The notes beneath the pieces were generated by a model, which had not been told where the DNA came from, did not search any database, and worked only from the letters and a program-made list of their open reading frames with translations. DNA of 60,313 nt, the filler included, from Basidiobolus ranarum (Eukaryota): assembly GCA_040143965.1 (NCBI GenBank). It is 10 parts of 10 records of this genome, joined end to end, with 100 filler letters (N's around TTAATTAATTAA, not from the genome) between each part and the next. Parts side by side here need not be neighbours in the genome. Positions count along the whole stretch, not along the records: positions 48,364 to 54,290 come from JASJQH010008338.1; 9 more parts are not named here. The stretch is one strand, 5' to 3'. Shown one piece after another: positions 40,645 to 58,622 of the stretch. Both the position numbers and the translations under genes were made by a program. How positions within the stretch are numbered: position 1 is the stretch's first letter; the number at the start of each line of letters is the position of its first letter.

Positions 40645-41682
40645 TAGCTATCGCGATTGTATGTATTTAGTCACTCTTCCTCTTATATACCCGTATTCAT
40701 TTTTGTTAACAGTATACCCGCTATTATCAGATCTTTTTGAAATATTTACTCTCGCTTTTCGATCTATCACGTTTTTATGAATCATTACTCCATGTTGAAC
40801 ATTTATTTTTCTTAAAAACGTTAATAAATATTTACTCTTTCTGAAAGTAGGACATAGTAGCGAATCTGCATATTAAACTTGAGTAGATGCAAGTAAACCG
40901 GTTGAGAGTATCGGCCATCGCAAGGTATCTTTATTTTTATAGTGCCGAGTTCGCGCCCTGTTAACATATTTTTTCATGCGTTCATTTTTCGAATTAATTC
41001 CCTTTTTTTACAGTTGCTTTCCTATTACTCTCTCCGCTCCCAATGCTCAGCTGCTTTGAATTATTAGTCGAGTTTGTGTCGAGGCTATAGTTAGCACACT
41101 CCAAGTTCGAACGATATCGTAAAGTTGAACCTAGCACTTCTCTTGAGCTATATGGAGTAGCTTGAGATTTCTGTGAGAAACTTTGTGCATCCAGAGACTA
41201 GCAGACTTATATACATTTCCCACGTTATCATGTACATAAAGGAGTTGCTCTAGATGCTACTTGGATAGCGAATCAGATTACCCGTATCTCTCTGGCATAC
41301 AATACTAATGGAAGTTCTTTTCAGCTTGATTGTGGGAGTGGAGCAAGCAATACAATTGAATTCCTATTTTTCTACAAATGGTTAGCTTTCCTTGCATCAT
41401 TACTCAACAATCATCCATTTGGAATCCAAATTAATCGAGATTGTTTTATTTCTCGATAATAATATGTCTTGAAATATTGAAATTTTCACCCCAATTACCA
41501 GGAATGAGGGGAAATCTGTGACTTTCATTCAATTAGTTATTACAATTCCATCTCGTGATGACTAATTTTGATGAATTCGCTATTGTTTATATTTCCATGA
41601 CTTGAAGTGCCTTGACTTAGCTTCTCTTTGTATCTATACCTTTGGGCTTTTTTCAACCGTTTCAAAAAGGGGTTTGTTTGAT

Positions 41683-42230
41683 ATGAGTGTTGCTGGGAAC
41701 CGAAGAAAAGTGGTTATATGTGGGGGAGGAGTTATCGGTGCTTCTATTTCGTATTATTTAAGTACGATGGATTCTTCAAACTTCGAAATATGTCTAGTTG
41801 AACGAGATTCCTTAGCTTGCGGAGCGTCAGGAAAAGCTGGTGGTTTTTTAGCTTTAGATTGGTGCGAAGGTAGTACAACAGACAAATTAGCACGCGAGAG
41901 TTTTAAACTGCATATCGATCTAGCCAATAAGTTGAATGGCGCCGAGCGGTACGGGTATCGCTGTTTAGATGCTTTAGCTGTAACAGCCTCCTTAGAAAAC
42001 AAGGGTATAAAGGAGCCACCTTTATCTTGGTTAAACAAAGGTGTAATACAAAATACAAGCATTTTGGGTGGTCAAGCAACTACAGCTCAAGTACACCCAT
42101 ATCACTTTACGCATACCCTATGGCAGGAGGCCGAAGCACATGGTGCCAAGTTGCTACACGGTTGTGTGCAAGGAATAAAATATGACCAATCAGGAAAGCC
42201 TGAGGGAGTATTTGTTGATGGTCAAGTCAT
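41683..42230 (+). CDS. TDA3: FAD-dependent oxidoreductase (DAO family, Tda3-like), 5' part
   Basis: VVICGGGVIG, ACGASGKAGGFLALDW, TTAQVHP; truncated by contig end. Confidence 0.88.
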
Positions 42231-42330
42231 NNNNNNNNNNNNNNNNNNNNNNNNNNNNNNNNNNNNNNNNNNNNTTAATTAATTAANNNNNNNNNNNNNN
42301 NNNNNNNNNNNNNNNNNNNNNNNNNNNNNN

Positions 42331-43389
42331 AAACTCGACCGCAAGGCTCTTCCACCACCAGATATGCACTCGTTTGCCCACCAGGAATATGAAGCACCAC
42401 AAGGTGACATTGAGAGAGGCTTGGCAGCAATCTGGAAAGAATTGCTAGGTCTGGAGCATATCAGTCGCCACGATAACTTCTTTGAACTTGGTGGGCATTC
42501 GTTACTTGCTGTGCGGATGATCAGCCATATTCGCGCCAAGTTAGGTATCGAGATTGACTTGAGGATGTTCTTTGAAGCACCGTTCATTGTAAATTTTGCA
42601 AATCAAATACAAATGAAAGATGATGCACCCAGTAATCCATTTGATGTGTGGCTTCCAATTCAACCTAAAGGTAACCGTCCTCCATTGTACTGCATTCATC
42701 CGGTCATCGGTTTAAGTTGGAGTTATATTGGACTTTCTAAGTATTTGGATTCCGAACAACCTGTTTATGGTCTGCAAGCCCGAGGACTCGATGAACAGGC
42801 ACCAGTTGGGGAAACAATTGAAGCGATGGCACTAGACTACCTCGATCAAATTCGTAGCATCCAACCGAAAGGGCCTTACCACTTGCTTGGATGGTCCTTT
42901 GGTGGTAGCATTGCCCATAGTATCGCAATATCACTCCAACAACAAAACGAAACGGTAGCACTTTTAGCACTGATAGATAGTCCTTTAGCTTATGCTCATC
43001 TGGAAAATCAATGCAACTTGGAACAAGTAAGCACTTACGTAAAGCTACCTCGTTATAGTGTTGACCACTATTCAGAACAAGGTGAGCAATTATGGAAAAA
43101 AGTGCGACGAGTTGTTGAAAACAACTTAAGTGTTGCTAAGAAGCATTTTCCGCTAGTTTATTATGGAAATGCACTCTTCATCAGGGCAACAGTACCAGAG
43201 GATGAGGGTCATCCCCTTGTTGCGCCTGACATGTTGAAACCTTATGTTCACGGAAACATAGAGACCCATAATATCAACTGCAAACACAGTGATATGGATA
43301 ACTCTGCGCCGATAGCTGCAATCGGGCGTATTCTGGCAAATAAATTAAATGAAAGGGATTTGTCATACTCGATACGAGCTCGACTTTAG
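42331..43389 (+). CDS. Nonribosomal peptide synthetase C-terminus (end of A domain, PCP, type I thioesterase)
   Basis: A10 motif KLDRKALP at contig start; DNFFELGGHSLLAV; PLYCIHP...YGLQARG...GPYHLLGWSFGG; C-terminal His (CKHSDM); no introns. Confidence 0.95.
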   Translation, partial: KLDRKALPPPDMHSFAHQEYEAPQGDIERGLAAIWKELLGLEHISRHDNFFELGGHSLLAVRMISHIRAKLGIEIDLRMFFEAPFIVNFANQIQMKDDAPSNPFDVWLPIQPKGNRPPLYCIHPVIGLSWSYIGLSKYLDSEQPVYGLQARGLDEQAPVGETIEAMALDYLDQIRSIQPKGPYHLLGWSFGGSIAHSIAISLQQQNETVALLALIDSPLAYAHLENQCNLEQVSTYVKLPRYSVDHYSEQGEQLWKKVRRVVENNLSVAKKHFPLVYYGNALFIRATVPEDEGHPLVAPDMLKPYVHGNIETHNINCKHSDMDNSAPIAAIGRILANKLNERDLSYSIRARL

Positions 43390-44999
43390 GTTGCTTCACC
43401 CACAGAGGTTCCCACTGCGCGAGATTGTAATATAAAAATTTACTTACTCCACCATTACGATAGTTATCATTGAATGTGCATTATCATTACTCATCTAATA
43501 GCTTTTTAATAGGTTATACATCATACTCTCATTATTCTGTACCCATTACCACGTTTGTAGTTAATGTTGACTCAATAAACCTAGATCATTTTTGGAAAAT
43601 AGATTTTCTCTAGCCTAGTGGAGGGCGCTCCCCACGCAAACACACACAGACCTCTTATTCTTAGTAGTATTACCAATTTAACAAAATATTATTCCGAAAC
43701 ATACCACTACATCTCCCAGATGCACGTGATGCATATCTATATGATATAAGCTTTGATCATCCACCTCAATCCTTTATCACGTTGATGTTTTGACTTGAAG
43801 TTTTAACGCAACCTTTTACAACCAATGAAAAGATTCATTTGTAGGGATGTCTCACGCATGTGGTCAAGATCCCTAACTTGGATAATCGAGAAAATGCTCT
43901 TTCATTGGCTACCAATTTTCCTGATCATCGCCTAAAAAGGTATCAGATTCAAACTAATAATCTCATTGATAACATGGTAGCAAGGTAATTTCTACTCTTG
44001 ACGAAATCTATTCCATGCATCTAACTGTTCCAAATGATCATAAAATTGGGTAATTCCCACGTCATTGATTGTTTAGCAGGATATTCAGCCTAATTCCGAA
44101 GCATAGCATTCATGTTTCAAATGTAAAGAATGGATAAATTTCACTGGTTTTGCTAGATTACCATACTCTCACCGTATCTTTCAGGAAGTAGTATAGTATT
44201 ATATTATTGGGATAGGTTGCATGTAAACTCTAATAAGCCCCTGCATTGCACAATTATGAAATATTTCAAGAAACACTTGCCTCCCAATGCTAGTTTCATC
44301 ATCGGTATTTTGATGGTTCCTACATATGAAACCTGTTTTATTTGGCCAGGATTAGTGAATTTCGACCAAGTACAATAAAATCCTGCTGATTGAAACCAAT
44401 CATAACAAAGAGTGCTGGATAGTGGTAGACTGACCCGTGCAACCCCTTTGAAATATTTGGCCCAAGTCTATATATTGCATAGTCCCAATAAGTAAGCCGT
44501 GACTAAATAGTCAAAGTGCAGATCAATTCTTGCTAAGCATCTGTGACACTATAATATACCTGTCGTCATTGTGCTCCAAATGAAAATCCTAGTAATGCAA
44601 GTTCCGTTGAAAATCATCAGACATATGCCAAAGAGTCTCTCATGCATAAGGCTTGAAGACTGCATAATCAGTTTTGAATCCTTTTATCAAAGTTTAAGGA
44701 TCTCATATTCATCTTACTTACATGCAGAAAACATCATTGCGAACAAATCAAGCATGTAGCGACCTATTATGGCTCAAACCGTTGAAAATATCATTCTTAG
44801 TGATGTAGGTAAACCAAATAGTTCATCATACGTGTAACTAACTTATCAGATGTGATAAACAAAAGAATTACTAAAATTGATAACCAGCCCACGAACTAAA
44901 TTAGATCCAAAACTCCCCTAATTAAAATTTATAGGAACTTCAGAGACCCATCATATTAAAAAAAGTTTGCAAACTTCTTCCTGAACTACAACTAAGTTG

Positions 45000-46660
45000 T
45001 GTTGAAATTAGAATTGCCTAAACACCTATACAGTCACATATAGTTTAAATAGCTTAGTATTTAGTTATCTTATATTCAACTAAGGCATTACCCATTATTC
45101 TCAATTGGAACTTACTTAGAATGTTTTACCAACTTAGAAGTTCTCAGATCTATAGATTTTTCAAGTGTGTGCTAGAAGCTCCAAACTTTGCACACATGTT
45201 CCTGGGACCTTGCATAGCACATTCTACATATTTCAACTCAATAAGTGAACAAATGGAAAGCACCAATTATTCTAATGCTCTAATTCATTTCTAACAAACT
45301 TGCAAAGACTTTAACATGTTATGAGCCCTAAGCTTGCACTGTCTGTTACTTTGACTTCTCAAATTTTTGAAACCTTTCCCTCTTCTGTATTACAATGACA
45401 TTGCTGCTGCAAGAAAAAGAACTTTAGGACACTGTTGTAGGATAAGAAAGCAATGCAAAACTATGTGAAACAAACGTTTTACATAAGGTTAAAGAAGAAC
45501 TGAGTGACATTAAGACAAGTTGCCATGTGGATTAAGACAAATTGCTCATGCATTGTTAATAGCCCAAGACTACCAAGAAAGTATGGAAGCCCTTGGAAGA
45601 AACCTACCAAACATGTTCTGCAGCCAAACAGATGTATCTTACAAGACATTAAATCACTATTTAAAAGAGTCATTTATTAAGCCAATGAAATGGAATGCAT
45701 TGGGGTGTGTGGTATTGATCAGGATATCATACATACAATCCTGAGTAGACTGTCTCACCAGTTTTAGAGCTTAGTAAAGGCTCTAGAATCCTGAACTGAA
45801 GCTTCAACCCTAACTATATATTTGACAGACTTCTGAATGAAGATCAACATTTTTTATGATCTAATCAAAAGAATGAAGAAATGTTTTTATAGGATATGGG
45901 AAATCTTCCTATAAAAGTCACAAGCACTTTAAGAAGAAAAGTAGCACATTCTGTGATACTGCAAAGGAACTGGCCACTTAAGCAAAGATTGCCTTAAAAG
46001 AATTGTAAAACAATAAAAAAATGCATCTGGAAATGTCATTATGATAGAAGAACACATAATGAAGAAATCTCAATTAGAAAGGTTGTCATTGTAGATAACT
46101 ACACAGTGAATACTATTGGAATGGAAACAATTAAAGTGGTATAACTGGTGCATCTGAAGAGAAAGTTTATACTTTTAAGGATGTCCTGCATCTTCCCAAT
46201 ATTGCCAAGAACTCAATATCTGTATGCATGTTAGATCAGAAGGACTAGAATTCAATTTGGTAAGTCAGGATATATCATCAGCAACAGAAATGGAAATTAT
46301 TTAGCTTTGTGAGAAAAGGAACAGTACTTAAGCAAACTGACATATAATTCAAGTGTTTGATGTGTAAATATAAGTTATTCCAATCAAGAAACTGTTCAAA
46401 TATGGTATAAAAAATTTACAATATTAGATTTCATTAGTTGAGCAAAATTTTCAAGAATTTTGAGATTTCTGGAATTCAAATTAACCTCCCAACCAAAATA
46501 GAAACTTTTGCTAGTTGAATATAAGAAAAATAAGCCAGGCAACCATTCAAGAGCTCTGGCTTAAACAAATCTGTCAGATAAGTGAATGTGACTCATCAAG
46601 AGTTGTGTGTACTTAAGCAAAATTTGTCTTCAGGTGGAAGAGAATATTTTATCAAATCAA
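45000..46660 (+). mobile_element. Copia 5' LTR (family B, 45000-45316), PBS and degenerate gag-pol
   Basis: TGTTGAAATT...ctttaaCA followed by tgttatgagccc; decayed gag and zinc knuckle near 45950. Confidence 0.85.
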
Positions 46661-49594: not shown

Positions 49595-49943
49595 AATGCA
49601 TCCATTCCTGGTATTCAGAAATATGCTTTGCAAAAATATTAGCAAGACTATCATCCTCATATAATCTCTAATCCCGAGCTAACTCGGCGACAACTGAGAA
49701 AACGTTCATTGGTTGAACGCCAGCTTGAACCATTCGAGCTAATGTAAAATTGCTTACTCCTCAGTTGAATGTTCCTGATGCGTCAAGCACAGCAAATACT
49801 TCATAGCCGTCCCTAACTGCTGAAAGGGCTGGAACTGTAACTCAAACATCTGTCACAATACCGGTCATGAACATACGTTTTCTCCCGGTTGTTTGAATTG
49901 CTCAAACTATCACAGGGTCATCCCAAGTATTGATCTCTCCATC
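49595..49943 (-). pseudogene. ycaC: YcaC-like isochorismatase-family hydrolase, C-terminal half, four in-frame stops
   Basis: GEINTWDD...TGRKRMFMTGIVTDV*VTVPALSAVRDGYEVFAVLDASGTFN...RMVQAGVQPM...ELARD*R, collinear with enterobacterial YcaC as recalled. Confidence 0.88.
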
Positions 49944-50629
49944 ATTACCAGCACCTCTATTATCATAGTCATATGCACCAGCACCATTACCTCCCCCCTT
50001 TAGTGGCACCTCCATTTCCATCCGTTACTATGGTTTCGTTACAGGTTGTTATGGTCATGATGTAGAGTTTCCTTGGATTTGGTCAGGTCACACTTGCGGC
50101 GATAAGGGACCTAACCCCAAGCCAAACCTGTACAATCTATATATCGGTAAGTGTTTGATTGTTAATGCTAGAAATGAAATATCGTACTAATCTCACCTTG
50201 AGCGAGGTCGAAACAGAACGTTCAGACTGTAATTATGCGCCCCCTGGCCAAGCTAGTTTAGCGTAATCTGGATAGTTCTGTTTTGAAATGATAAAATGGT
50301 TTATTTAGGGCTGTCTATGAGGCTTCAATTTACGTTATGACTTTGTTAGAGAAACTATCTACACCTATACAAGTGTGCAATATTGACGATGTGTTTGTAT
50401 CATGATGGAGCTAGTTTCAATATAGATACTCACTCGTAATGTACATATGCATGTTGCCTGAATAAACTCAATAACCAATAAACAGATTTACAAGCGAGTG
50501 AGCTATCGGAATACTATTCTTCTACTTTTATTTGTTATTTCCCAGGAAAGAGGAGGATGTTCTCTTACGTAGCATAATCTTTACCGCTGGTACATTGCTA
50601 CAATATTTCTTGGTGTATTATTTGATTTC

Positions 50630-51335
50630 AGTGATGATTATGGTCATATAGAAATGACTCAGCCTCATCCTCGTCAGTCCCAGTATAATCCTACATACAA
50701 GGGCACTCCAGACTACAACATGGTAGCCCCACATAATCTTTGTAAGCTATAATTACGAAAGATTGTTATCAGATGACGATGAAATAATTCTTAACCTTCT
50801 CTAACTGACACTTAGGTTTTCTGATTTAGGGTTAGCATTAGAAAGGATAACATCCAAATAGTAACTCCATTTTTTAAGCCAGATTTCAATAGCGACGAGA
50901 TGAATATTTTTGTCATTCCAAATACAGAATTTGAATTTAATGTATTACTTGAAGTCACAAATACAAAACCTCCGCCTCCTATTCAAGATACTATTTTATC
51001 TTATGACTCTAAACGAAGAACCGATATCCCTCGAAATAATAATGAACTGCTTCCTACTCTACTAATAAACACTATTTCCAAAAAATGTATGTTTTTCTGT
51101 CCAAAATTTATTTCGTTTGGCAATACCAAACGGATGTAATAGAACCATATACAATGACAAGATTGTCACTAAATCTGTTTCAAATTTTAGTATAAAAAAA
51201 TTCACTCTCAACATGCAGAAAATATGCATTAGATATTTGCATTGGAAGGGGTTATCTCCAATGTCAACAGAGCGCCACTTTACGGTAAGGGTTCTGAAAA
51301 TATGTTATCATCAGGAGCCACAGGAACAAATTAAA
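50630..51335 (+). pseudogene. Decayed beta'-like RNA polymerase of plasmid or viral type
   Basis: Ordered motifs YGHIEM..P (50639), ERLLSDDDEIILN (50757), PDFNSDEMNIF (50879; cf. ADFDGDEMN), PIQDTI (~50980), NMLSSGATG (~51300; cf. M..SGSKG). Confidence 0.7.
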
Positions 51336-52205
51336 CCGCACCCAAATCAGCAGATGTTTGTGACATCAATACATGCACAATCTCTTTTCCAATGTGCAGA
51401 TTTTTTTACAAGTATGGCATTGACCTAGTCTCCTACTTGTATGTGTTGAAATTAGCATAGCCTAAACATCTATATAGTCATATATAGCTTAGTATTTAGT
51501 TATTCCATATTTCACCAAGATATCACTCTTTATTCTCAAGCGGAACTTACTTAGAAGTTTGAAGATATACAAGTTTTTCAAGCTAGTCCTAGAAGCCCCA
51601 AACTTTGCACATATGCTTCTGGGACCTTCCTTAACACGTTCTATACGTTTGCTTGTTTACCTCTTGACAAAACCATAAATGACAACTTTCTATTCGATAA
51701 TTCAATAAGTGAAAAGCACCAGTTCTTCTAGTTCTTCAAACAACTTCCAACAAACTCCCAAAATACTTTGACATTATTGATGTAAGTGTATGATTAATAG
51801 GATCTTTAGTCCTTGATGAATTTCATGTGTTAGGTTGAGGTAGATAGGTGGAGGAGAGTGAAAAGTCTTATTGGTATAACGCACTATAGAAGTTGAATCA
51901 TCAATTGAGTGTACATCTAGTTTTGTAAATATAGTAGATTCTATCCCAAATAAAAATGGCAAATTGATTTCTTAGTAGTATTATCAATGAGTCTGTCACT
52001 CTGTAATGCTCAGCACATTAATATTCCAACCTCATTTTGGACTTATGACCAAATTAGACAAGCTATCGGGAGGGTCATTTATATATATATGGATACAATC
52101 ATACAAAGATTTCCAAAAGTCTATCATAGCAAAATTAGAAAGTATTTAAAGGATATATTTTCTAGTGAGGATAATAAGAACTGTCTAATGCTGAACGTAT
52201 TGTAA
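51330..52205 (+). pseudogene. Decayed DExH SF2 helicase (poxvirus D6/D11 or pGKL2 ORF4-like), split by a solo LTR
   Basis: PHPNQQMFV (Q-motif-like), LVLDEFH (51806-51826), NKNGKLI, SSIINESVTL, HINIPTSFWTYDQIRQAIGRVI (motif VI, ~52059). Confidence 0.72.
51444..51773 (+). repeat. Solo LTR family B
   Basis: TGTTGAAATTAG...ctttgaCA; homologous to 45000-45316; no clean TSD. Confidence 0.85.
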
Positions 52206-52758: not shown

Positions 52759-53463
52759 TCACGCCTCAAAATGGGTCCCAACATGCCACTCTACAGCTCT
52801 CTCATCTCCCTCAAACAACCCACAAACCGGGCAAGTAAGAGCCTTCTCCTCCTTCTTAGCTTCGGATCTCAGAATCTCAGATCTAGGTAACTCATCCCTC
52901 GTCCTCTCTCCACTCTTTCCACCTCTAGACTTCCCCTTCTTCTCTGAAAACCGGCCTTCCTTTACAAACACAGATAAATCATACTCCCGCTTCGGCTCAG
53001 CCTCTTGTGCTAAATTCGCATACTCGTTATCACGTTTCCCCCGTTTACCCATTCCAAACCTTCTGTTCGACGTCCTACCCTCTCTATTATCGTTATAACA
53101 CGCGTCGTGTTGTGTAGAGGAACCACCTTCCCCAGTGGTAGATGATAATAAAGATTTTTCGACTAAATCTGACGAAATAACGGCTTGAACTCGGCCTACT
53201 CGACCGTCGCGTAGGCGAACTTTAACACCACGTGGGTGGTCTCCGCGAGTGAGGATTTCATTTACGTACCCGGTTACTTGGCGGCCGCTTCTTTGGTCTT
53301 GTTTTAGGATTATTGAGACTGGTGTCATGGGGCGGATTTGGGATATTGGTGGGACGGAATGGTAGTTCGGCATGGCTGTTGCAATGTTGTGTCGACTCTT
53401 GTTGAAAAGTATTCTTGAATCGAAAGGAAAAATTCTACCTACCAAAAAACGTGGTAGATTCAT
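52759..53463 (-). CDS. DUF2196/YwbE-domain protein with C-terminal UBZ-like zinc finger
   Basis: VSIILKQDQRSG...G.V.EILT..DHPRGVKVRLRDGRVGRVQ; CPVC...HVGTH. Confidence 0.85.
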   Translation of the reverse strand: MNLPRFLVGRIFPFDSRILFNKSRHNIATAMPNYHSVPPISQIRPMTPVSIILKQDQRSGRQVTGYVNEILTRGDHPRGVKVRLRDGRVGRVQAVISSDLVEKSLLSSTTGEGGSSTQHDACYNDNREGRTSNRRFGMGKRGKRDNEYANLAQEAEPKREYDLSVFVKEGRFSEKKGKSRGGKSGERTRDELPRSEILRSEAKKEEKALTCPVCGLFEGDERAVEWHVGTHFEA

Positions 53464-53999
53464 CAAGCAAGGAAGAACAAAAGTAAGAGTAGGCGAGACA
53501 AATGGCGACTATCTTATATGTATATACCACGTGTTCCAATATGACCTGAAAAAAATATCCCGAAAAACTGTCCCCCCATTAGATTGGATCACTGCAAATT
53601 TGGTAGGGATTTAGGATTTGTTCTCCATTTCAGTGAACCTGGGTGGGTCGACATTGTTGGTCACAACGTAGCTGAGGAGCTACTCTAGTCAATTGCAGTT
53701 GAGGAACTGAGAGCTTACTTTTTCACAACTTCTTCGATTTCGTCGAGACTTTGGTTGAGAACCTTCACCTTTGGGCTATATGAGAGACAGCGAAACATAC
53801 TCCAAATGGCCTCTCACTTCCTGCTTCATATTCCTCAACTAACTTCACACTTGCTTGATTTTCATTCATAAGCCTGAAAATTTAGCATTCATAGAAGATC
53901 AAGCCTAGTTGCCTCACAAGCCATCTCTCTACCTTTGATTTTCTTCAAGTTTCATATCATTACAGGGCTGCTCTGTCAATGATTCCCATTTGAAGTGTT

Positions 54000-54290
54000 T
54001 GTTGAAGTATTTGGGAGCCTGTTGGAAGTGGTTTGGAGAATTAGAGGAATTGGTGGTTTTCACTTATTTATTTATTGAGTAGAAAGTTGACTTTATAGTT
54101 TTGTCAAGATGTAAACAAACTAACGTGAAGAATGTGTTAAGGAAGGTCCCAGGAACATGTGTGCAAAGTTTGGGGCTTCTTTGAAAAATCTATATATCTG
54201 AGAACTTCTAAGTAAATTCCTTATGAGAATAATTGATAATATCTTAGTTCATTATAAGATAACTAAGTACTAAGCTATATATGACTATAT
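54000..54290 (-). repeat. LTR family B, truncated by contig end
   Basis: Reverse complement of 116-408 and 51444-51773. Confidence 0.85.
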
Positions 54291-54953
54291 NNNNNNNNNN
54301 NNNNNNNNNNNNNNNNNNNNNNNNNNNNNNNNNNTTAATTAATTAANNNNNNNNNNNNNNNNNNNNNNNNNNNNNNNNNNNNNNNNNNNNGCGGTGATGC
54401 GTGGATACTGTTTTTGCGTGTGGTCCTAATCTGGTTGCAAGTTCGATCAATATATTACACCAATATTCGGAGAGAAGGAATCTGAAAAGGATGGGAAAAT
54501 GCCCTTAGGCTGTGACTTGGCTGATCCTACCTCTTCAGCCTAGATTTTACCGCATCTTTCCCCATTTGAATTGGTAAAAAATCAAGAGAAGTACCTTGAG
54601 ATTAATGATTGTACCCTCTGAAGGGCAAATGGCCCCAAGTTGAATTTGGGTATTAATCTCACATTCAAAATTCCTCAAGGGAGTTTCGGTAATGGAAATC
54701 CGAGTGCCGACTGTTGTCAACTCCAGTCAAATACATACCTGCTAATATCGAATTCATGGATTGGCCTATGCTTGCGTGCATTGATTTAGCAGGTTTTAAA
54801 TCGGTCAGATTTATTATTCTCATTTATTAACAGATCATGCCTAGCTCTCCGAGGTACCGATCAACCGGATGACGTGGCTTGGTCAGCAAAATATATAAAT
54901 CAACACAAGTGTGTCGATCATATCAAACCATACAGATTTAACGCAACACAACA

Positions 54954-57900
54954 ATGTCAAGCAATCAATGCCCATTCAAACAGGCTGATACCAAGCAAGA
55001 ATCAGTCGAAAACACCACCGCTGGCAACGCCGAAGCTGGAATATCCAGCACAAAGAGAAAAACAATAGTGGTCGCATTCTCAGGACAAGACATAGAAAAA
55101 TCTGGAGTTGTCGTCAGGCTGCAGACTAACTGGGATCTCGATGACGTGAAGCAGGATTGTGGAGAGAAATTGAGCATCTCTGGATATAACCAGATAGAAT
55201 TCTATAATGAAGAAGGGGAAAAGATAAATTCACTTAGCCAACTTATGGATAACGATGTTGTCTATATTCCAGGGAATGATTCTTGCCACCAGGAAATTCC
55301 CACTCCTCCGACAAGTATTTTCTTTGGTACACTCCCTCAACTCCTACCGGATACTCCAGGATCTCTTAGACGGCTCTATAAAGAATACAAAACTCCTATC
55401 CTTCAAATCTACATCTTCTCAACCAAAGTGATTGCCACAAACCACCCAAGTATTGCAGAGGTGATTGCCCAAGAAAGTGAGTACTTCACCAAGAAGATGG
55501 TACTCCCATTTGCCGAGCTAAAGGCCATAGGTGGTGAAGGACTTTTTACCACAAACACAGATGAGAAAGTGTGGAAGTTAGCACACAAAATACTTATCCC
55601 TGCATTCTCTAATTCCTCCATGAAGACCTATGCAGAGGAAATGGGTCAGCTGGCTTTAAAATTATGCAACGTACTAGGAAGTTTTAAGCCAGATGAATCC
55701 TTCTTGGTAACTGATTGGATGACTAGAATTACTTTTGAAACCATCGGAATGGTAGGATTTGGATATGATTTTAAAGTGCTTGATTCTAGAGATTCCCCGC
55801 TGCATCCATTTATTGAGGCCATGTCATATTGCTTGACTGAGACGAAGAAAAGGACCAGTCGTTCTCAATATTGGAAAAAACTACCAATCTCGTCCAATCA
55901 TAAATTTGATCGAATGATGGACTTGATGAAAGACACGGTGGACGAAGTGATAACTCGACGCAAAAAAGACGCTGCACAAAACAAGACAAGCAATGATCTT
56001 CTATCATACATGCTGGAAGCCAGCGATAAATCTACTGGGGAAAAACTGACTGATAATGTCATTCGTGACGAGGTAGTGACTCTCTTAATTGCTGGCCATG
56101 AGACTACCTCAAACACACTTTCTTGGTGCTTGTATCTACTGGCCAGACATCCAGCTGTCTTGAAGAAAGTCATTCAAGAGATAGTCAACGTCGGTATCAA
56201 TGATAAAGAACCTCCGACCATTTCTCAAGTATCCAAACTCAAGTACACTAATCAAGTCTTAAAGGAAACGTTAAGAATGTATCCTCCGGTTTCGTCACTT
56301 CAGAAATATTGTATTAAGGATTGCATTCTACCACTTGGATATAAAATTGAAAAAGACACCGTAGCACAGATCAACATTTACTCTCTGCACTATAATCCAG
56401 ATTTCTGGCCTGAACCAGAAGTATTCAATCCGGATAGGTTTAGTTCTGCTGAGGAATCCAAAAGACATCCCTACGCGTGGCTACCTTTCTCCTCTGGGCC
56501 CCGCGCCTGTCTTGGTACGCAGTTTGCCTTGCAAGAGGCTAAGATCGTCTTGGCAACCATGTTGAGGAGATTCGAGTTTCATCTGATGGATAACAAACCA
56601 GTTCTTTATGCCACCAACTCTGCTGCACTGAAACCTGAAAATTTTTACATGAGGATCACTCGTAGAACTGAGCTGCCTGAATCAACTTCTGAGTCACCCT
56701 CTGATTCCTCAACCCCAAGAACTGAGCTGACCACACCATTGATCGCTAAACCCCTCTCATCAAATGTGGTACCCCCAAAGCTCACAGTTTTATTTGGAAG
56801 TAATATGGGACTTTCGGAGGAGTATGCAAACAAAATTACCAAGTACGCTATTGAACTTGGCTTTAAAGAGGTTGAAATTTCCCCACTAGATGAATGGAGT
56901 GTTTTAAAAGCTGGTAGATACGAAGAACAAGAGGTAAAGGACCCCAATGAAATTCCCATAATTCTCGTGGTTACTAGTACCTATAATGGCCTGCCACCAG
57001 ATAATGCAAAAGATTTTGACCGATTCATTAGCGTTAAAAGAGATGAATCCGACAAACCATTAAAAGGTCTTCGTTATACAGTATTTGGATGCGGAAACAA
57101 GCAATGGAGAACTTATCAGGTCTTCCCCGGAAAAGTTAACGAGGCTTTGGAGCGTTTGGGAGCTGACCAGATATTCCCTGTCGGAGCCGGTGATGCTGAT
57201 GGTGATATCGATGCTGATTTTTCAGAGTGGATTGCTAAATTGTACGCATCGTTGTTAGCTGATTTAGGCATGGAAGGCTCCGGTTTAAATCTTCTTGGTA
57301 CTACTACCTCGCAAGATCCCACTGTTGGCATTAACTTACAGTACATCACTCCTAACTGTACAAAGGAAGTTGATATTGCTAAAAGTAATATCGGTAATAT
57401 GCCTCAAGCTCAGCTAGTCGAAAATAAGGAACTCCAGGTGACTGAAAAGAGTCATCGTAGTACACGTCATCTGGAGATTGAGTTACCTGAAGGTACTAAT
57501 TATAGCGCTGGTGATCATTTAGAAATTGCTCCAGAAAATCGGGCCAGTCTGGTTGAAGAGATAGCGATGGCATTTGGCTATGCCTTGGATGCAGTCTTCG
57601 AAGTGAAAATCGATAGCTCTGTGAACAGTTCAATTAGCTCTCGTTCGCTGGCTGCAGTCATCAAAGGACCATGTACTATCCGAAATGCCCTAACTTATTA
57701 TGCAGATCTCTTGGCAGTTCCGTCTCGCCAATTCCTGGGTGTGTGTGTTTCAGTCATTTCTGAAGAATATCCAGAATTGGAAAAAAGATACTTGGAAGGA
57801 ATATGTCAAACTGGAGAGGAAGGAAATAAGATTTATGCCGAGTTCGCGAAACAGAATCGAACTTTACTTGATTTAATTCACAATTACCCTATGATCAAAA

Positions 57901-58622
57901 AACTGGATTTTCTGGCTTTCCTATGTGCCATGCCTGTGATGTCAAAACGTAGGTACTCAATCGCTAGTAGTCCACTGGTAACTAAGAATATAGCCCACAT
58001 TTGTGTGGCAGTGGTTGAAGACTCTGGGTTTGAAAACAAAATCTACCCAGGCCTTTGTTCCAGCTTCCTTGCTAATTCCCAACCCGGAGTAGCAATATGT
58101 GCTCACGTAAAACCGACAAAAGATATTTTTCATTTACCAGAAGACCCTACTATCCCTGTAATCATGGCCTGTGCAGGTACTGGGATTGCTCCTTTCCGAG
58201 GGTTCCTCCAAGAACGTCAGTGCGACGGATTGAAATCCATCCAAAAAGGAGGTAGATCCACTACCCATCTATTCTTTGGGTGTCGCTCTCCCGAACATGA
58301 TTTTATCTATCGTGATGAACTTGAAGGATTTGAAAGCGATGGCACCCTTGATAAGCTACACCTCGCGTTCTCTCGAGTCGGTGGTTCCAGGAAGTATGTC
58401 CAACATGAACTACTTGCCTCGGCCTCCTTGGTGTGGGATCTCTTACATAACCAAAAAGGGGCATTCTATGTCTGTGGATCAGCTTCTGGGATGGCTAAAG
58501 ATGTTGCCTCAACACTCATCACCATTATTCAACAAATCGGAGGTATGAACGATCAAGAAGCTAAGCAATATTTCCAAGAATTACAAGAGAATGGGAAATA
58601 CAATGAAGATGTTTGGGGTTAA
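54954..58622 (+). CDS. Self-sufficient cytochrome P450 / NADPH-P450 reductase fusion (CYP102/CYP505-like) with extra N-terminal domain
   Basis: GEGLFT, LIAGHETTS, ETLR, PDRF, PFSSGPRACLG; flavodoxin FGSNMG, VFGCGN.QW; RRYSIASS, AGTGIAPFRGF, FYVCG, DVWG; 1222 aa, intronless. Confidence 0.97.
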   Translation: MSSNQCPFKQADTKQESVENTTAGNAEAGISSTKRKTIVVAFSGQDIEKSGVVVRLQTNWDLDDVKQDCGEKLSISGYNQIEFYNEEGEKINSLSQLMDNDVVYIPGNDSCHQEIPTPPTSIFFGTLPQLLPDTPGSLRRLYKEYKTPILQIYIFSTKVIATNHPSIAEVIAQESEYFTKKMVLPFAELKAIGGEGLFTTNTDEKVWKLAHKILIPAFSNSSMKTYAEEMGQLALKLCNVLGSFKPDESFLVTDWMTRITFETIGMVGFGYDFKVLDSRDSPLHPFIEAMSYCLTETKKRTSRSQYWKKLPISSNHKFDRMMDLMKDTVDEVITRRKKDAAQNKTSNDLLSYMLEASDKSTGEKLTDNVIRDEVVTLLIAGHETTSNTLSWCLYLLARHPAVLKKVIQEIVNVGINDKEPPTISQVSKLKYTNQVLKETLRMYPPVSSLQKYCIKDCILPLGYKIEKDTVAQINIYSLHYNPDFWPEPEVFNPDRFSSAEESKRHPYAWLPFSSGPRACLGTQFALQEAKIVLATMLRRFEFHLMDNKPVLYATNSAALKPENFYMRITRRTELPESTSESPSDSSTPRTELTTPLIAKPLSSNVVPPKLTVLFGSNMGLSEEYANKITKYAIELGFKEVEISPLDEWSVLKAGRYEEQEVKDPNEIPIILVVTSTYNGLPPDNAKDFDRFISVKRDESDKPLKGLRYTVFGCGNKQWRTYQVFPGKVNEALERLGADQIFPVGAGDADGDIDADFSEWIAKLYASLLADLGMEGSGLNLLGTTTSQDPTVGINLQYITPNCTKEVDIAKSNIGNMPQAQLVENKELQVTEKSHRSTRHLEIELPEGTNYSAGDHLEIAPENRASLVEEIAMAFGYALDAVFEVKIDSSVNSSISSRSLAAVIKGPCTIRNALTYYADLLAVPSRQFLGVCVSVISEEYPELEKRYLEGICQTGEEGNKIYAEFAKQNRTLLDLIHNYPMIKKLDFLAFLCAMPVMSKRRYSIASSPLVTKNIAHICVAVVEDSGFENKIYPGLCSSFLANSQPGVAICAHVKPTKDIFHLPEDPTIPVIMACAGTGIAPFRGFLQERQCDGLKSIQKGGRSTTHLFFGCRSPEHDFIYRDELEGFESDGTLDKLHLAFSRVGGSRKYVQHELLASASLVWDLLHNQKGAFYVCGSASGMAKDVASTLITIIQQIGGMNDQEAKQYFQELQENGKYNEDVWG

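Follow-up and report, generated by a model that had tools for sequence, protein, structure and literature searches.

The window analysed here is a stretch of 60,313 nucleotides, filler included, from Basidiobolus ranarum (GCA_040143965.1). At 50727-51375 on its + strand it carries a collinear relic, about 650 bases long, of the N-terminal half of a beta'/Rpb1-type RNA polymerase gene. The relic lies in gene-poor DNA, with pseudogene and transposable-element debris in its flanks, and the features of the locus are as follows.

50579..50737, + strand: 5' fragment of an LPMO-like / chitin-binding type-4 gene, from phmmer and tblastn matches to P0002 and P0003.
50727..50801, + strand: relic piece 1, phase 0, just upstream of the NRQPSL-type motif; profile positions 284-306.
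50795..51001, + strand: relic piece 2, phase 2, Rpb1 domain 2 with the catalytic loop and the QDT motif.
50994..51285, + strand: relic piece 3, phase 0, region of Rpb1 domains 3-4; profile positions 387-489.
51299..51375, + strand: relic piece 4, phase 2 then 1, with SGAKGS-type and GQQ-type motifs and one stop.
51442..51773, + strand: solo LTR-like repeat of 332 bp with TG...CA ends, from blastn copies in the window.
51774..52205, + strand: AT-rich stretch (31% GC), claimed in an earlier note on this DNA to be a helicase; no significant match.

The relic spans about 215 codons from the middle of the gene, covering Rpb1 domains 2-4 and the SGxKGS/GQQ segment. Comparison by tblastn with P0006, a Basidiobolus ranarum protein annotated as DNA-directed RNA polymerase, showed that 50 of 73 residues (68%) were identical over residues 315-387 (E 7e-23), and residues 290-447 of this protein aligned to the relic across frames. 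P0004, a 576-aa Rpb1-domain protein, matched piece 2 with 34 of 74 identical residues (tblastn, E 6e-10) and was also found by phmmer (E 5.4e-5) when a 254-aa read-through of the relic, with stops as X, was compared with 1.84 billion proteins. Three proteins (P0002, P0003 and P0004) were obtained in that search at E <= 0.001. Both P0004 and P0006 match Pfam RNA_pol_Rpb1_2, at 4e-29 and 3.6e-29, respectively.

With a profile of 23 family members, the pieces of the relic ranked 1, 2, 3 and 5 among the window's 3606 stop-to-stop fragments. Along profile positions 284-489 the pieces are collinear (284-306, 306-386 and 387-489 fall on 50727-51285), C-terminal columns 21-46 follow at 51299-51375, and the canonical block order is kept. 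The relic is significantly similar to Rpb1 domain 2, including the region of the catalytic loop, by the profile (i-E 1.9e-11) as well as by the P0006 match. Pfam searches of eight single frames of the region gave nothing relevant at E <= 10; generic models do not pick up a relic this broken.

Piece 1 aligns with residues 290-314 of P0006 and had a profile i-E of 0.024 (rank 3 of 3606). Piece 2, which contains two in-frame stops and a 6-residue deletion, had profile i-E values from 1.9e-11 to 2.3e-14. Piece 3 contains two adjacent in-frame stops, aligns with residues 390-447 of P0006 and gave a profile i-E of 3.8e-9 as a whole frame and 3.3e-4 as a fragment. Piece 4, which corresponds to columns 21-46 of the 119 C-terminal columns, is collinear with and adjacent to piece 3; it was not significant by HMMER alone (score -1.7), and in a frameshift-aware alignment its score was 39.0, with a null of 22.3 +/- 4.2, while 6 of 300 control segments scored as high. 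Polymerase sequence is detectable as far as 51375. Candidates for a continuation were rejected: an RR-VK-type string, picked by eye beyond the LTR, had an N-half tail score that 290 of 300 controls reached, and QAIGR, taken as the trigger-loop motif AQSIGEP of a C-half, had a score reached by 11 of 120 controls, so that an Rpb1 C-half was not detectable downstream in the window.

All ten peptide strings from which the earlier note had read a polymerase followed by a helicase are present on the + strand where it had placed them. The assignment of ERLLSDDDEIILN, PDFNSDEMNIF, PIQDTI and NMLSSGATG to a polymerase holds, as they lie inside the collinear relic. PHPNQQMFV, which had been given to the helicase, lies inside the polymerase relic as well, within piece 4, and was read in the wrong frame.

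The relic contains four frame switches and five in-path stops, and about 290 N-terminal codons are absent from it. In its catalytic loop DFNSD replaces DFDGD, with loss of the middle Asp. It has neither the intact frame nor the three catalytic Asp of a functional gene, and 50727-51375 is a non-functional molecular fossil that now encodes nothing. Its GC content is 33% versus 42-47% for the neighbouring genes.

The upstream junction of the relic, at about 50727-50737, abuts the first 50 or so codons of an LPMO-like gene, which runs in the same direction. This fragment, which is without a start codon, consists of a degenerate signal peptide and a mature N-terminus that starts with His. It was matched by phmmer to two Basidiobolus meristosporus proteins with chitin-binding type-4 / type-3 domains, P0002 (E 2.3e-6) and P0003 (E 2.2e-5), with 75% and 59% identity over 32-37 aa, while tblastn gave 27 of 51 and 21 of 33 identical residues. 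YGHIEMTQP, formerly taken as a polymerase motif, is the mature N-terminus of this LPMO-like protein. The rest of the gene (residues 53 onward) had no match anywhere in the window by tblastn at E <= 10, and the LPMO-like gene is itself dead. The closest named proteins are from Basidiobolus both for this fragment and for the relic.

The LTR starts 66 bases past the last polymerase sequence and separates the relic from the stretch claimed as a helicase. Its ends were set on the alignment of its copies, which were found by blastn in the window at 54005-54290 (- strand, 81%), 185-408 (81%) and 44998-45317 (73%). No clear target-site duplication was found in its flanks. Weak copia gag traces follow the copy at 44998.

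Searches for other viral core genes (DNA polymerase, D5, RPB2, capsid and capping enzyme) found none in the window by tblastn with 4039 ORFs, taken from 160 loci, or by six-frame Pfam searches of 43.4-50.6 kb. The same two kinds of search detected in the window none of the other genes shared by fundsalphaviruses (D5, D6/D11, RPB2, RPB5, SAM methyltransferase and NCLDV-type DNA polymerase). The element is therefore a lone fragment, and its donor is not typable from neighbouring genes.

The remaining strings of the claimed helicase, LVLDEFH, NKNGKLI, SSIINESVTL and FWTYDQIRQAIGRVI, are spread over three different frames, and sequence and profile searches detected no helicase in them. At 51774-52205 no helicase match was obtained with Pfam at E <= 10, with phmmer against PDB in all 3 frames, with a word search of 5.8 billion proteins for longer proteins (32 candidates) or with tblastn and the same 4039 ORFs. 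The stretch contains no continuation of either Rpb1 half, and it has neither significant similarity to a helicase core nor motifs I-VI in order with normal spacing. A Helicase_C-type HMM built from 12 helicase ORFs placed the frame at rank 165 of 2477 domain hits, with 0.2 bits. A SNF2/RING helicase ORF from locus L025 gave a single-sequence frameshift alignment with a score of 51, which 11 of 300 controls reached; it was given no weight because its path is implausible and rich in frame switches.

The one sign of a helicase was a weak language-model lead to Helicase_C. The 83-aa frame at 51954-52202 gave a first-match score of 0.91 in ESM Atlas, with Helicase_C in 17 of 30 named matches, these 17 being clusters in which 13-40% of the members carry the domain. 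A score of 0.9 is reached by 4-10 in 100 shuffled proteins, and the features in common numbered 97-118 of 256. By eye, the strings S-x-x-x-E-S-V-x-L and Q-A-I-G-R lie about 28 codons apart, which would be a typical spacing for motifs V and VI. The Atlas lead and the motif of the earlier note are not independent, because the same few residues underlie both. In addition, LVLDEFH as motif II would precede the putative motif V by only about 55 codons, a distance much too short, and the strings require two frame switches within 100 bases. A D6/D11-like SNF2 helicase is among the shared genes of fundsalphaviruses (Gong et al. 2020, PMC7017919). We regard it as possible, if doubtful, that the same viral insert included a D6/D11- or SNF2-type helicase, now decayed, of which about 51880-52100 would be the C-terminal end with motifs V-VI; the stretch at 51774-52205 may be such a relic or unrelated junk. 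If it were a helicase, the pairing of polymerase and helicase would be right for the downstream part. As a cassette the pairing is not supported, since the helicase is without significant support.

The relatives of the relic are stand-alone Rpb1 N-halves of about 600 aa (447-660 aa). This compact family carries Pfam Rpb1 domains 2-5, with domains 2, 4 and 5 recognized in P0004. Each of the 23 aligned relatives begins at the Rpb1 N-terminus, where the Cys/His columns are invariant, and for those of 576-660 aa the end lies some 55 residues inside Pfam Rpb1 domain 5. Archaeal A' (Rpo1N) shares the domain order and is split at the same point within domain 5, but is about 880-910 aa long rather than about 600 aa, and the host here is a fungus. 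Comparison of the family profile with PDB gave 364 bits for eukaryotic Pol II RPB1, about 310-322 for archaeal A', 254 for ASFV and 162 for vaccinia. Bit scores to P0004 were 230-433 within the compact family versus 140-163 for long proteins.

In a 65-row IQ-TREE tree (quick search, SH-aLRT only, without bootstraps), 24 compact proteins and the IMG/VR locus L001 formed one clade (support 88), and P0004, P0005 and P0006 grouped together (support 99). Pol II, Pol III, archaeal A' and 12 of the 14 RPB1 rows from giant-virus MAGs fell outside this clade, which in this quick search stood alone on long branches and was not nested in the sampled giant-virus MAG RPB1 clades. Archaeal A' grouped with Pol III and not with the compact proteins. 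In L001 there is a match to Pfam Rpb1 domain 1 at 1.5e-26, and next to it lie a D5-like primase-helicase, an mRNA capping enzyme with an N7-methyltransferase region, DUF2738 and DUF5757. This viral-type context supports a viral origin of the compact family.

Taken as a whole, the locus is probably best explained as a dead viral fossil whose polymerase relic came from a nucleocytovirus-like element of Basidiobolus-type fungi. We infer that a DNA piece of such an element was joined to chromosomal DNA, by end-joining rather than by a dedicated integrase. The likeliest donor would be the fundsalphavirus lineage of Gong et al. 2020, in which RPB1 consists of separate N- and C-terminal genes. Such donors may or may not be true virion-forming viruses: in the available text of Myers et al. 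2026, NCLDV capsid genes are reported from none of 40 non-zoosporic fungal genomes. An LTR retrotransposon would later have landed next to the downstream end of the relic and been reduced to a solo LTR, and the fragment would then have decayed neutrally, with the four frame switches, the five stops and the lost Asp as the outcome. What stands of the earlier note is that a multisubunit RNA polymerase gene of virus type, foreign to the host, has left a fossil in the AT-rich, gene-poor nuclear DNA of a fungus that is not a yeast. Of the two origins that the note had proposed, the nucleocytovirus is the better fit; the pGKL2-like plasmid is not supported, the relatives being unfused N-halves with the N-terminal clamp region.

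The suggestion that the element was possibly undescribed is superseded by the report of Gong, Zhang and Han 2020 (PMC7017919), in which Basidiobolus meristosporus and B. heterosporus are described as carrying endogenous NCLDV-like elements whose RPB1 is split and whose genes include a D6/D11-like helicase. The relic fits this already reported kind of giant-virus-like fossil from Basidiobolus. In the accessible text of that paper (PMC7017919), the fundsalphavirus elements are, like the relic, nuclear insertions in Basidiobolus, found also in other early-diverging terrestrial fungi, with premature stops, frameshifts and retrotransposon sequences nearby. The N-half of their RPB1 is a gene of its own, 'RP1n', separate from the C-terminal gene, and this architecture is that of the relatives of the relic. 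Host genus and gene architecture are the grounds on which the relic would be equated with RP1n. Unlike those elements as described in PMC7017919, the relic is a lone fragment of about 650 bp without their defining DNA polymerase or their other shared genes. Our literature search found no paper pairing Basidiobolus with Nucleocytoviricota and met the name fundsalphavirus only in the original paper. Short dead fragments of cytoplasmic-element genes, without integrase signatures, are also present in yeast chromosomes as NUPAV-type captures, which come from virus-like element (VLE) plasmids and RNA viruses of budding yeasts. The relic resembles these in being a short dead fragment joined to chromosomal DNA and in lacking integrase signatures; its source, unlike theirs, would be an NCLDV-like lineage of polymerases, and its host a Basidiobolus-type fungus.

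A bolder reading is that the relic stands for small NCLDV-like viruses, or elements without a capsid, that make up a separate lineage in terrestrial fungi; they could still be active, and their uniquely compact (about 600 aa) split Rpb1 would be a deep clade of its own beside the polymerases of cells and of classical giant viruses. We consider this rather improbable. Such a lineage would also be marked by a reading frame of 447 aa that is open in Basidiobolus ranarum and by metagenomic relatives, at least 24 in number, whose contigs reach 97 kb. If this lineage were real, it could be the link so far lacking from nucleocytoviruses to the reduced polymerases that fungal cytoplasmic plasmids carry.

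That the relic came from a pGKL2-type cytoplasmic linear plasmid (a VLE) is very unlikely, although it is AT-rich and the P0004 contig, at 19.8 kb, is of plasmid-like size. The relic keeps the segment of the NRQPSL-type motif upstream of the catalytic loop, a motif that we take to belong to the beta'a1-a10 block. According to the accessible part of Sykora et al. 2018 (PMC6211774), the VLE large subunit, K2ORF6p in pGKL2, is a unique beta-beta' fusion in which the beta' part comprises only residues 754-974, without most of the clamp (beta'a1-a10). The relic family resembles K2ORF6p/K2ORF7p as an AT-rich, reduced, virus-derived multisubunit RNA polymerase of a fungal cytoplasmic element, and the beta' of these proteins is split near the same region as archaeal A'/A'' (PMC6211774). 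In contrast to the K2ORF6p fusion described there, the family consists of unfused Rpb1 N-halves of 576-660 aa, and its stand-alone relatives, which begin at the Rpb1 N-terminus and carry Pfam Rpb1 domains 2-5, are, at 447-660 aa, too short for a beta module fused upstream. The relic itself is uninformative on such a fusion, because the sequence upstream of it is the LPMO-like fragment. The clamp is not absent from the family either, as seen from Rpb1 domain 1 of L001 and from the conserved Cys/His columns in the relatives. Neither a protein-primed family-B DNA polymerase nor a capping enzyme was found in the window by Pfam (six frames of 43.4-50.6 kb and frames of 50.5-52.2 kb) or by tblastn with the 4039 ORFs, nor did terminal inverted repeats come to light in these searches, and the contigs of many relatives are of 32-97 kb. 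VLEs with a full housekeeping set, including two RNA polymerase subunits and a helicase, are known from Coemansia (Zoopagomycota) and several Mucoromycota (Heneghan, Salzberg and Wolfe 2026, PMC13348850), but Basidiobolus has 0 occurrences in the accessible text of that paper.

A processed or duplicated pseudogene of the largest subunit of host RNA polymerase I, II or III can be dismissed with near certainty: the best PDB matches of the family profile are indeed eukaryotic Pol II RPB1, ahead of ASFV and vaccinia, but 120 long Rpb1/Rpc1-type proteins (1009 aa or more, fungal Pol II and Pol III included), of which 114 touched the region, gave a best E of 0.053 (median 1.7) versus 7e-23 for P0006 and 1e-8 to 1e-10 for the compact family, so that the best matches are not host nuclear Rpb1, and both the lower scores of the long proteins to P0004 and the place of the compact clade outside Pol II and Pol III point the same way.

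Read as the fossil of a nucleocytovirus-like element, the relic would be one more dated footprint of the contact of dsDNA viruses with Basidiobolus-type fungi; it already adjoined an LTR insertion whose copies are now 73-81% alike. It has no function itself and is useful only as a paleovirological marker. Viral footprints can be tiny lone fragments, and screens based on DNA polymerase, like that of Gong et al., would therefore miss them. The more interesting by-product is the compact family of Rpb1 N-halves of about 600 aa, which has as yet no place among the known virus groups. This family is almost absent from IMG/VR, with one locus among the matches listed. A single-protein scan of IMG/VR with P0004 found no relative, and two degenerate motif scans of it found no family member, L161 from such a scan being a chance match in a tailed phage. 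When IMG/VR and a metagenome collection were scanned with the family alignment, L001 was the only family member among the matches listed; these were mostly archaeal and classical giant-virus genes, with universal polymerase motifs.

The ten peptide strings on which the earlier note had based a polymerase and helicase cassette at 50630-52205 were all found in the sequence. The single-frame translation of 50573-51334, with X at stops, was run by phmmer against 1.84 billion representative proteins and gave three matches at E<=0.001. One of these, P0004 (576 amino acids, with Pfam Rpb1 domains 2, 4, and 5), covered the stretch from PDFNSDEMNIF to PIQDTI (E 5.4e-5), which upheld the attribution of these strings to a polymerase. 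A search with P0004 gave 360 proteins at E<=0.001, and the top of the best 120 of these was a family of roughly 450-660-aa proteins (230-433 bits). This compact family includes P0006, a 447-aa protein of Basidiobolus ranarum annotated as DNA-directed RNA polymerase and located on a 3.5-kb contig. In tblastn against the window, P0006 was identical at 50 of 73 residues over 50795-50995 (E 7e-23), and its residues 290-447 corresponded to 50727-51167 across frames. A family profile built from 23 aligned members (A1) matched whole frames of the window with i-E of 2.3e-14 and 3.8e-9; among all 3606 stop-to-stop fragments in the window, the pieces of the relic ranked 1, 2, 3, and 5, and they covered profile positions 284-306, 319-386, 387-407, and 420-489, in order.

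A frameshift-aware alignment (our own code) carried the relic on to 51375, through SGxKGS-type and GQQ-type motifs, with a score of 39.0 against 22.3 +/- 4.2 (6 of 300 random same-length window segments reached 39.0). This alignment runs through PHPNQQMFV in a frame other than that of the string, which is therefore not a helicase motif as had been proposed. The path includes four frame switches, five stops, and a six-residue deletion, the catalytic loop reads DFNSD instead of the DFDGD of the compact family, and ~290 N-terminal codons are missing. The relic is now functionless.

The other two phmmer matches (E 2.3e-6 and 2.2e-5) were confined to query residues 22-58, the YGHIEMTQP stretch, which had been taken for the first polymerase motif. 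Both are Basidiobolus meristosporus proteins named for chitin-binding type-4 or type-3 domains, with weak Pfam AA9 signals, and YGHIEMTQP therefore marks the N-terminus, with its leading His, of a mature LPMO-like secreted protein. This LPMO-like fragment lies on the same strand as the relic and joins its upstream end within ~10 bases (50727-50737), and the remainder of the LPMO-like gene was not found anywhere in the window.

Features of the window
In the window: velvet-factor gene
In the window: GT34 glycosyltransferase gene
42331-43389 (+): carrier-protein (PP-binding) and thioesterase end of an NRPS/PKS-like gene, abutting a masked N run
44998-45317 (+): LTR belonging to the family of the repeat at 51442-51773, followed by weak copia-type gag signals at ~45540-45810
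~49707-49931 (-): isochorismatase-domain fragment with in-frame stops (Pfam E 9.7e-7), directly upstream of the region studied; a pseudogene or intron-broken exon
50579-50737 (+): truncated 5' fragment of an LPMO-like/chitin-binding type-4 gene, without a start codon
51442-51773: repeat with TG...CA ends, with three further copies in the window (73-81% identical)
52759-53508 (-): DUF2196 gene
54942-58619 (+): P450-flavodoxin-FAD-NAD fusion, a self-sufficient P450 of the P450-reductase type, in an intronless 1226-aa open frame (Pfam p450 5e-102)

The DNA of the window is fungal nuclear, and its N runs are masks at regular spacing. From 43.4 to 52.7 kb, genes are sparse and the DNA is AT-rich (35% GC versus 42-47% in the neighbouring genes); the relic is at the end of this tract, which carries LTR copies, weak traces of copia gag, and the minus-strand isochorismatase-like pseudogene. 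Upstream of the NRPS/PKS-like end, the frame 41575-42282 resembles, by eye, an FAD-dependent oxidoreductase.

No target-site duplication is clearly visible around the repeat at 51442-51773, which we read as a solo LTR. The copy at 44998-45317 and the gag signals that follow it (Retrotran_gag_2, E 0.011 and 0.062 in two frames, + strand) look like a decayed LTR retrotransposon. The polymerase was not detected again after the solo LTR: the remaining columns of the Rpb1 N-half scored 16.5, under the null mean and reached by 290 of 300 controls, and the score of the C-terminal half (profile from 32 long sequences) was reached by 11 of 120 controls. The detectable polymerase therefore stops at 51375.

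Sequence comparison indicates that the donor was not a host polymerase. Among 120 proteins of at least 1009 aa, fungal Pol II and Pol III included, the best E against the relic region was 0.053, and these proteins scored 140-163 bits with P0004, far under the internal scores of the compact family. In a 65-row tree (IQ-TREE quick search, SH-aLRT only), 24 compact proteins and L001, a viral locus of IMG/VR, formed one clade (support 88), within which P0004, P0005, and P0006 grouped (support 99). This clade was apart from Pol II, Pol III, archaeal A', and 12 of the 14 giant-virus MAG RPB1 rows, its deeper position being weakly constrained given the long branches and the quick search.

Nor does the donor appear to have been a pGKL2-type plasmid polymerase, the origin favored by the earlier note. 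K2ORF6p is described as a beta-beta' fusion whose beta' part has ~220 residues, with most of the clamp absent (Sykora et al. 2018, PMC6211774). Unlike it, the relatives of the relic are unfused, begin at the N-terminus of Rpb1, where their Cys/His columns are invariant, bear Pfam domains 2-5, and end ~55 residues into Rpb1 domain 5. In the relic itself, the stretch that precedes the catalytic loop is kept. In architecture the gene is of the RP1n type and is likened to the elements of Gong, Zhang and Han (2020, PMC7017919) by their description. These endogenous NCLDV-like 'fundsalphavirus' elements are reported there in 14 fungi, including B. meristosporus and B. heterosporus, with RPB1 as N- and C-terminal genes, D5, a D6/D11-like helicase, RPB2, RPB5, and a methyltransferase; stops and frameshifts occur in them, and retrotransposon sequences lie close by. 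Endogenous polymerase fossils of the NCLDV-like kind have thus already been published for Basidiobolus; the literature searched contained no later treatment. L001 is the one compact-family member with readable neighbours (a D5-like primase-helicase, an mRNA capping enzyme, DUF2738, and DUF5757). Counting against such a donor, no further viral genes were found in the window by tblastn with 4039 ORFs from 160 viral and metagenomic loci or by six-frame Pfam of 43.4-50.6 kb.

The helicase said to adjoin the polymerase had no significant support in Pfam, PDB phmmer, word search, tblastn, or our own HMM. LVLDEFH, NKNGKLI, SSIINESVTL, and FWTYDQIRQAIGRVI were spread over three frames within 51800-52100, and putative motifs II and V were only ~55 codons apart. 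At E<=10, Pfam gave no match in the frames of the stretch (51774-52205), and PDB phmmer gave no helicase or polymerase in any of the three frames. A word search of 5.8 billion proteins for longer proteins scored 0 of 32 candidates, and tblastn with the 4039 ORFs gave no match at E<=0.01 over 51376-52205. With a Helicase_C-type HMM grown from 12 helicase ORFs of the 160 loci, the 83-aa frame ranked 165 of 2477 domain hits (0.2 bits). The sole positive was the ESM Atlas feature search (first match 0.91; Helicase_C-bearing clusters in 17 of 30 named matches), in which only 97-118 of 256 features were shared and, by the tool's figures, 4-10% of shuffled proteins attain such a score; the signal leans on QAIGR, a string already picked out in the earlier note. 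We consider it rather doubtful that the post-LTR stretch is a relic of a helicase C-terminus; such a relic is plausible because, by the account of Gong et al., elements of this kind carry a D6/D11-like helicase.

In the most likely history, a viral DNA fragment would have been captured by end-joining beside or within a copy of the LPMO-like gene, a copia-type element would then have inserted just downstream and shrunk to a solo LTR, and the whole region would have undergone neutral decay within the TE-rich tract.

Beyond the fossil itself, the compact Rpb1 N-halves are a point of mild interest as a family. This family forms its own clade, separate from cellular and classical giant-virus polymerases, and B. 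ranarum has an open frame for a member. In IMG/VR it is nearly absent, L001 being its only clade member among the matches listed. In 40 genomes of non-zoosporic fungi, Myers et al. (2026) report that NCLDV capsid genes were not found. Proteins P0004-P0056 are stand-alone Rpb1 N-halves of ~560-660 aa from metagenomes, with contigs as long as 97 kb. On L001, a 40-kb viral contig, the Rpb1 N-half gene has 780 aa and stops in domain 5. A split RPB1 may exist in more than one viral lineage: the giant-virus MAG contigs L064 and L074 carry RPB1 as N-terminal ORFs of ~905-913 aa, which in the 65-row tree lie on long branches, without resolution, at the base of the cellular-plus-virus cluster.
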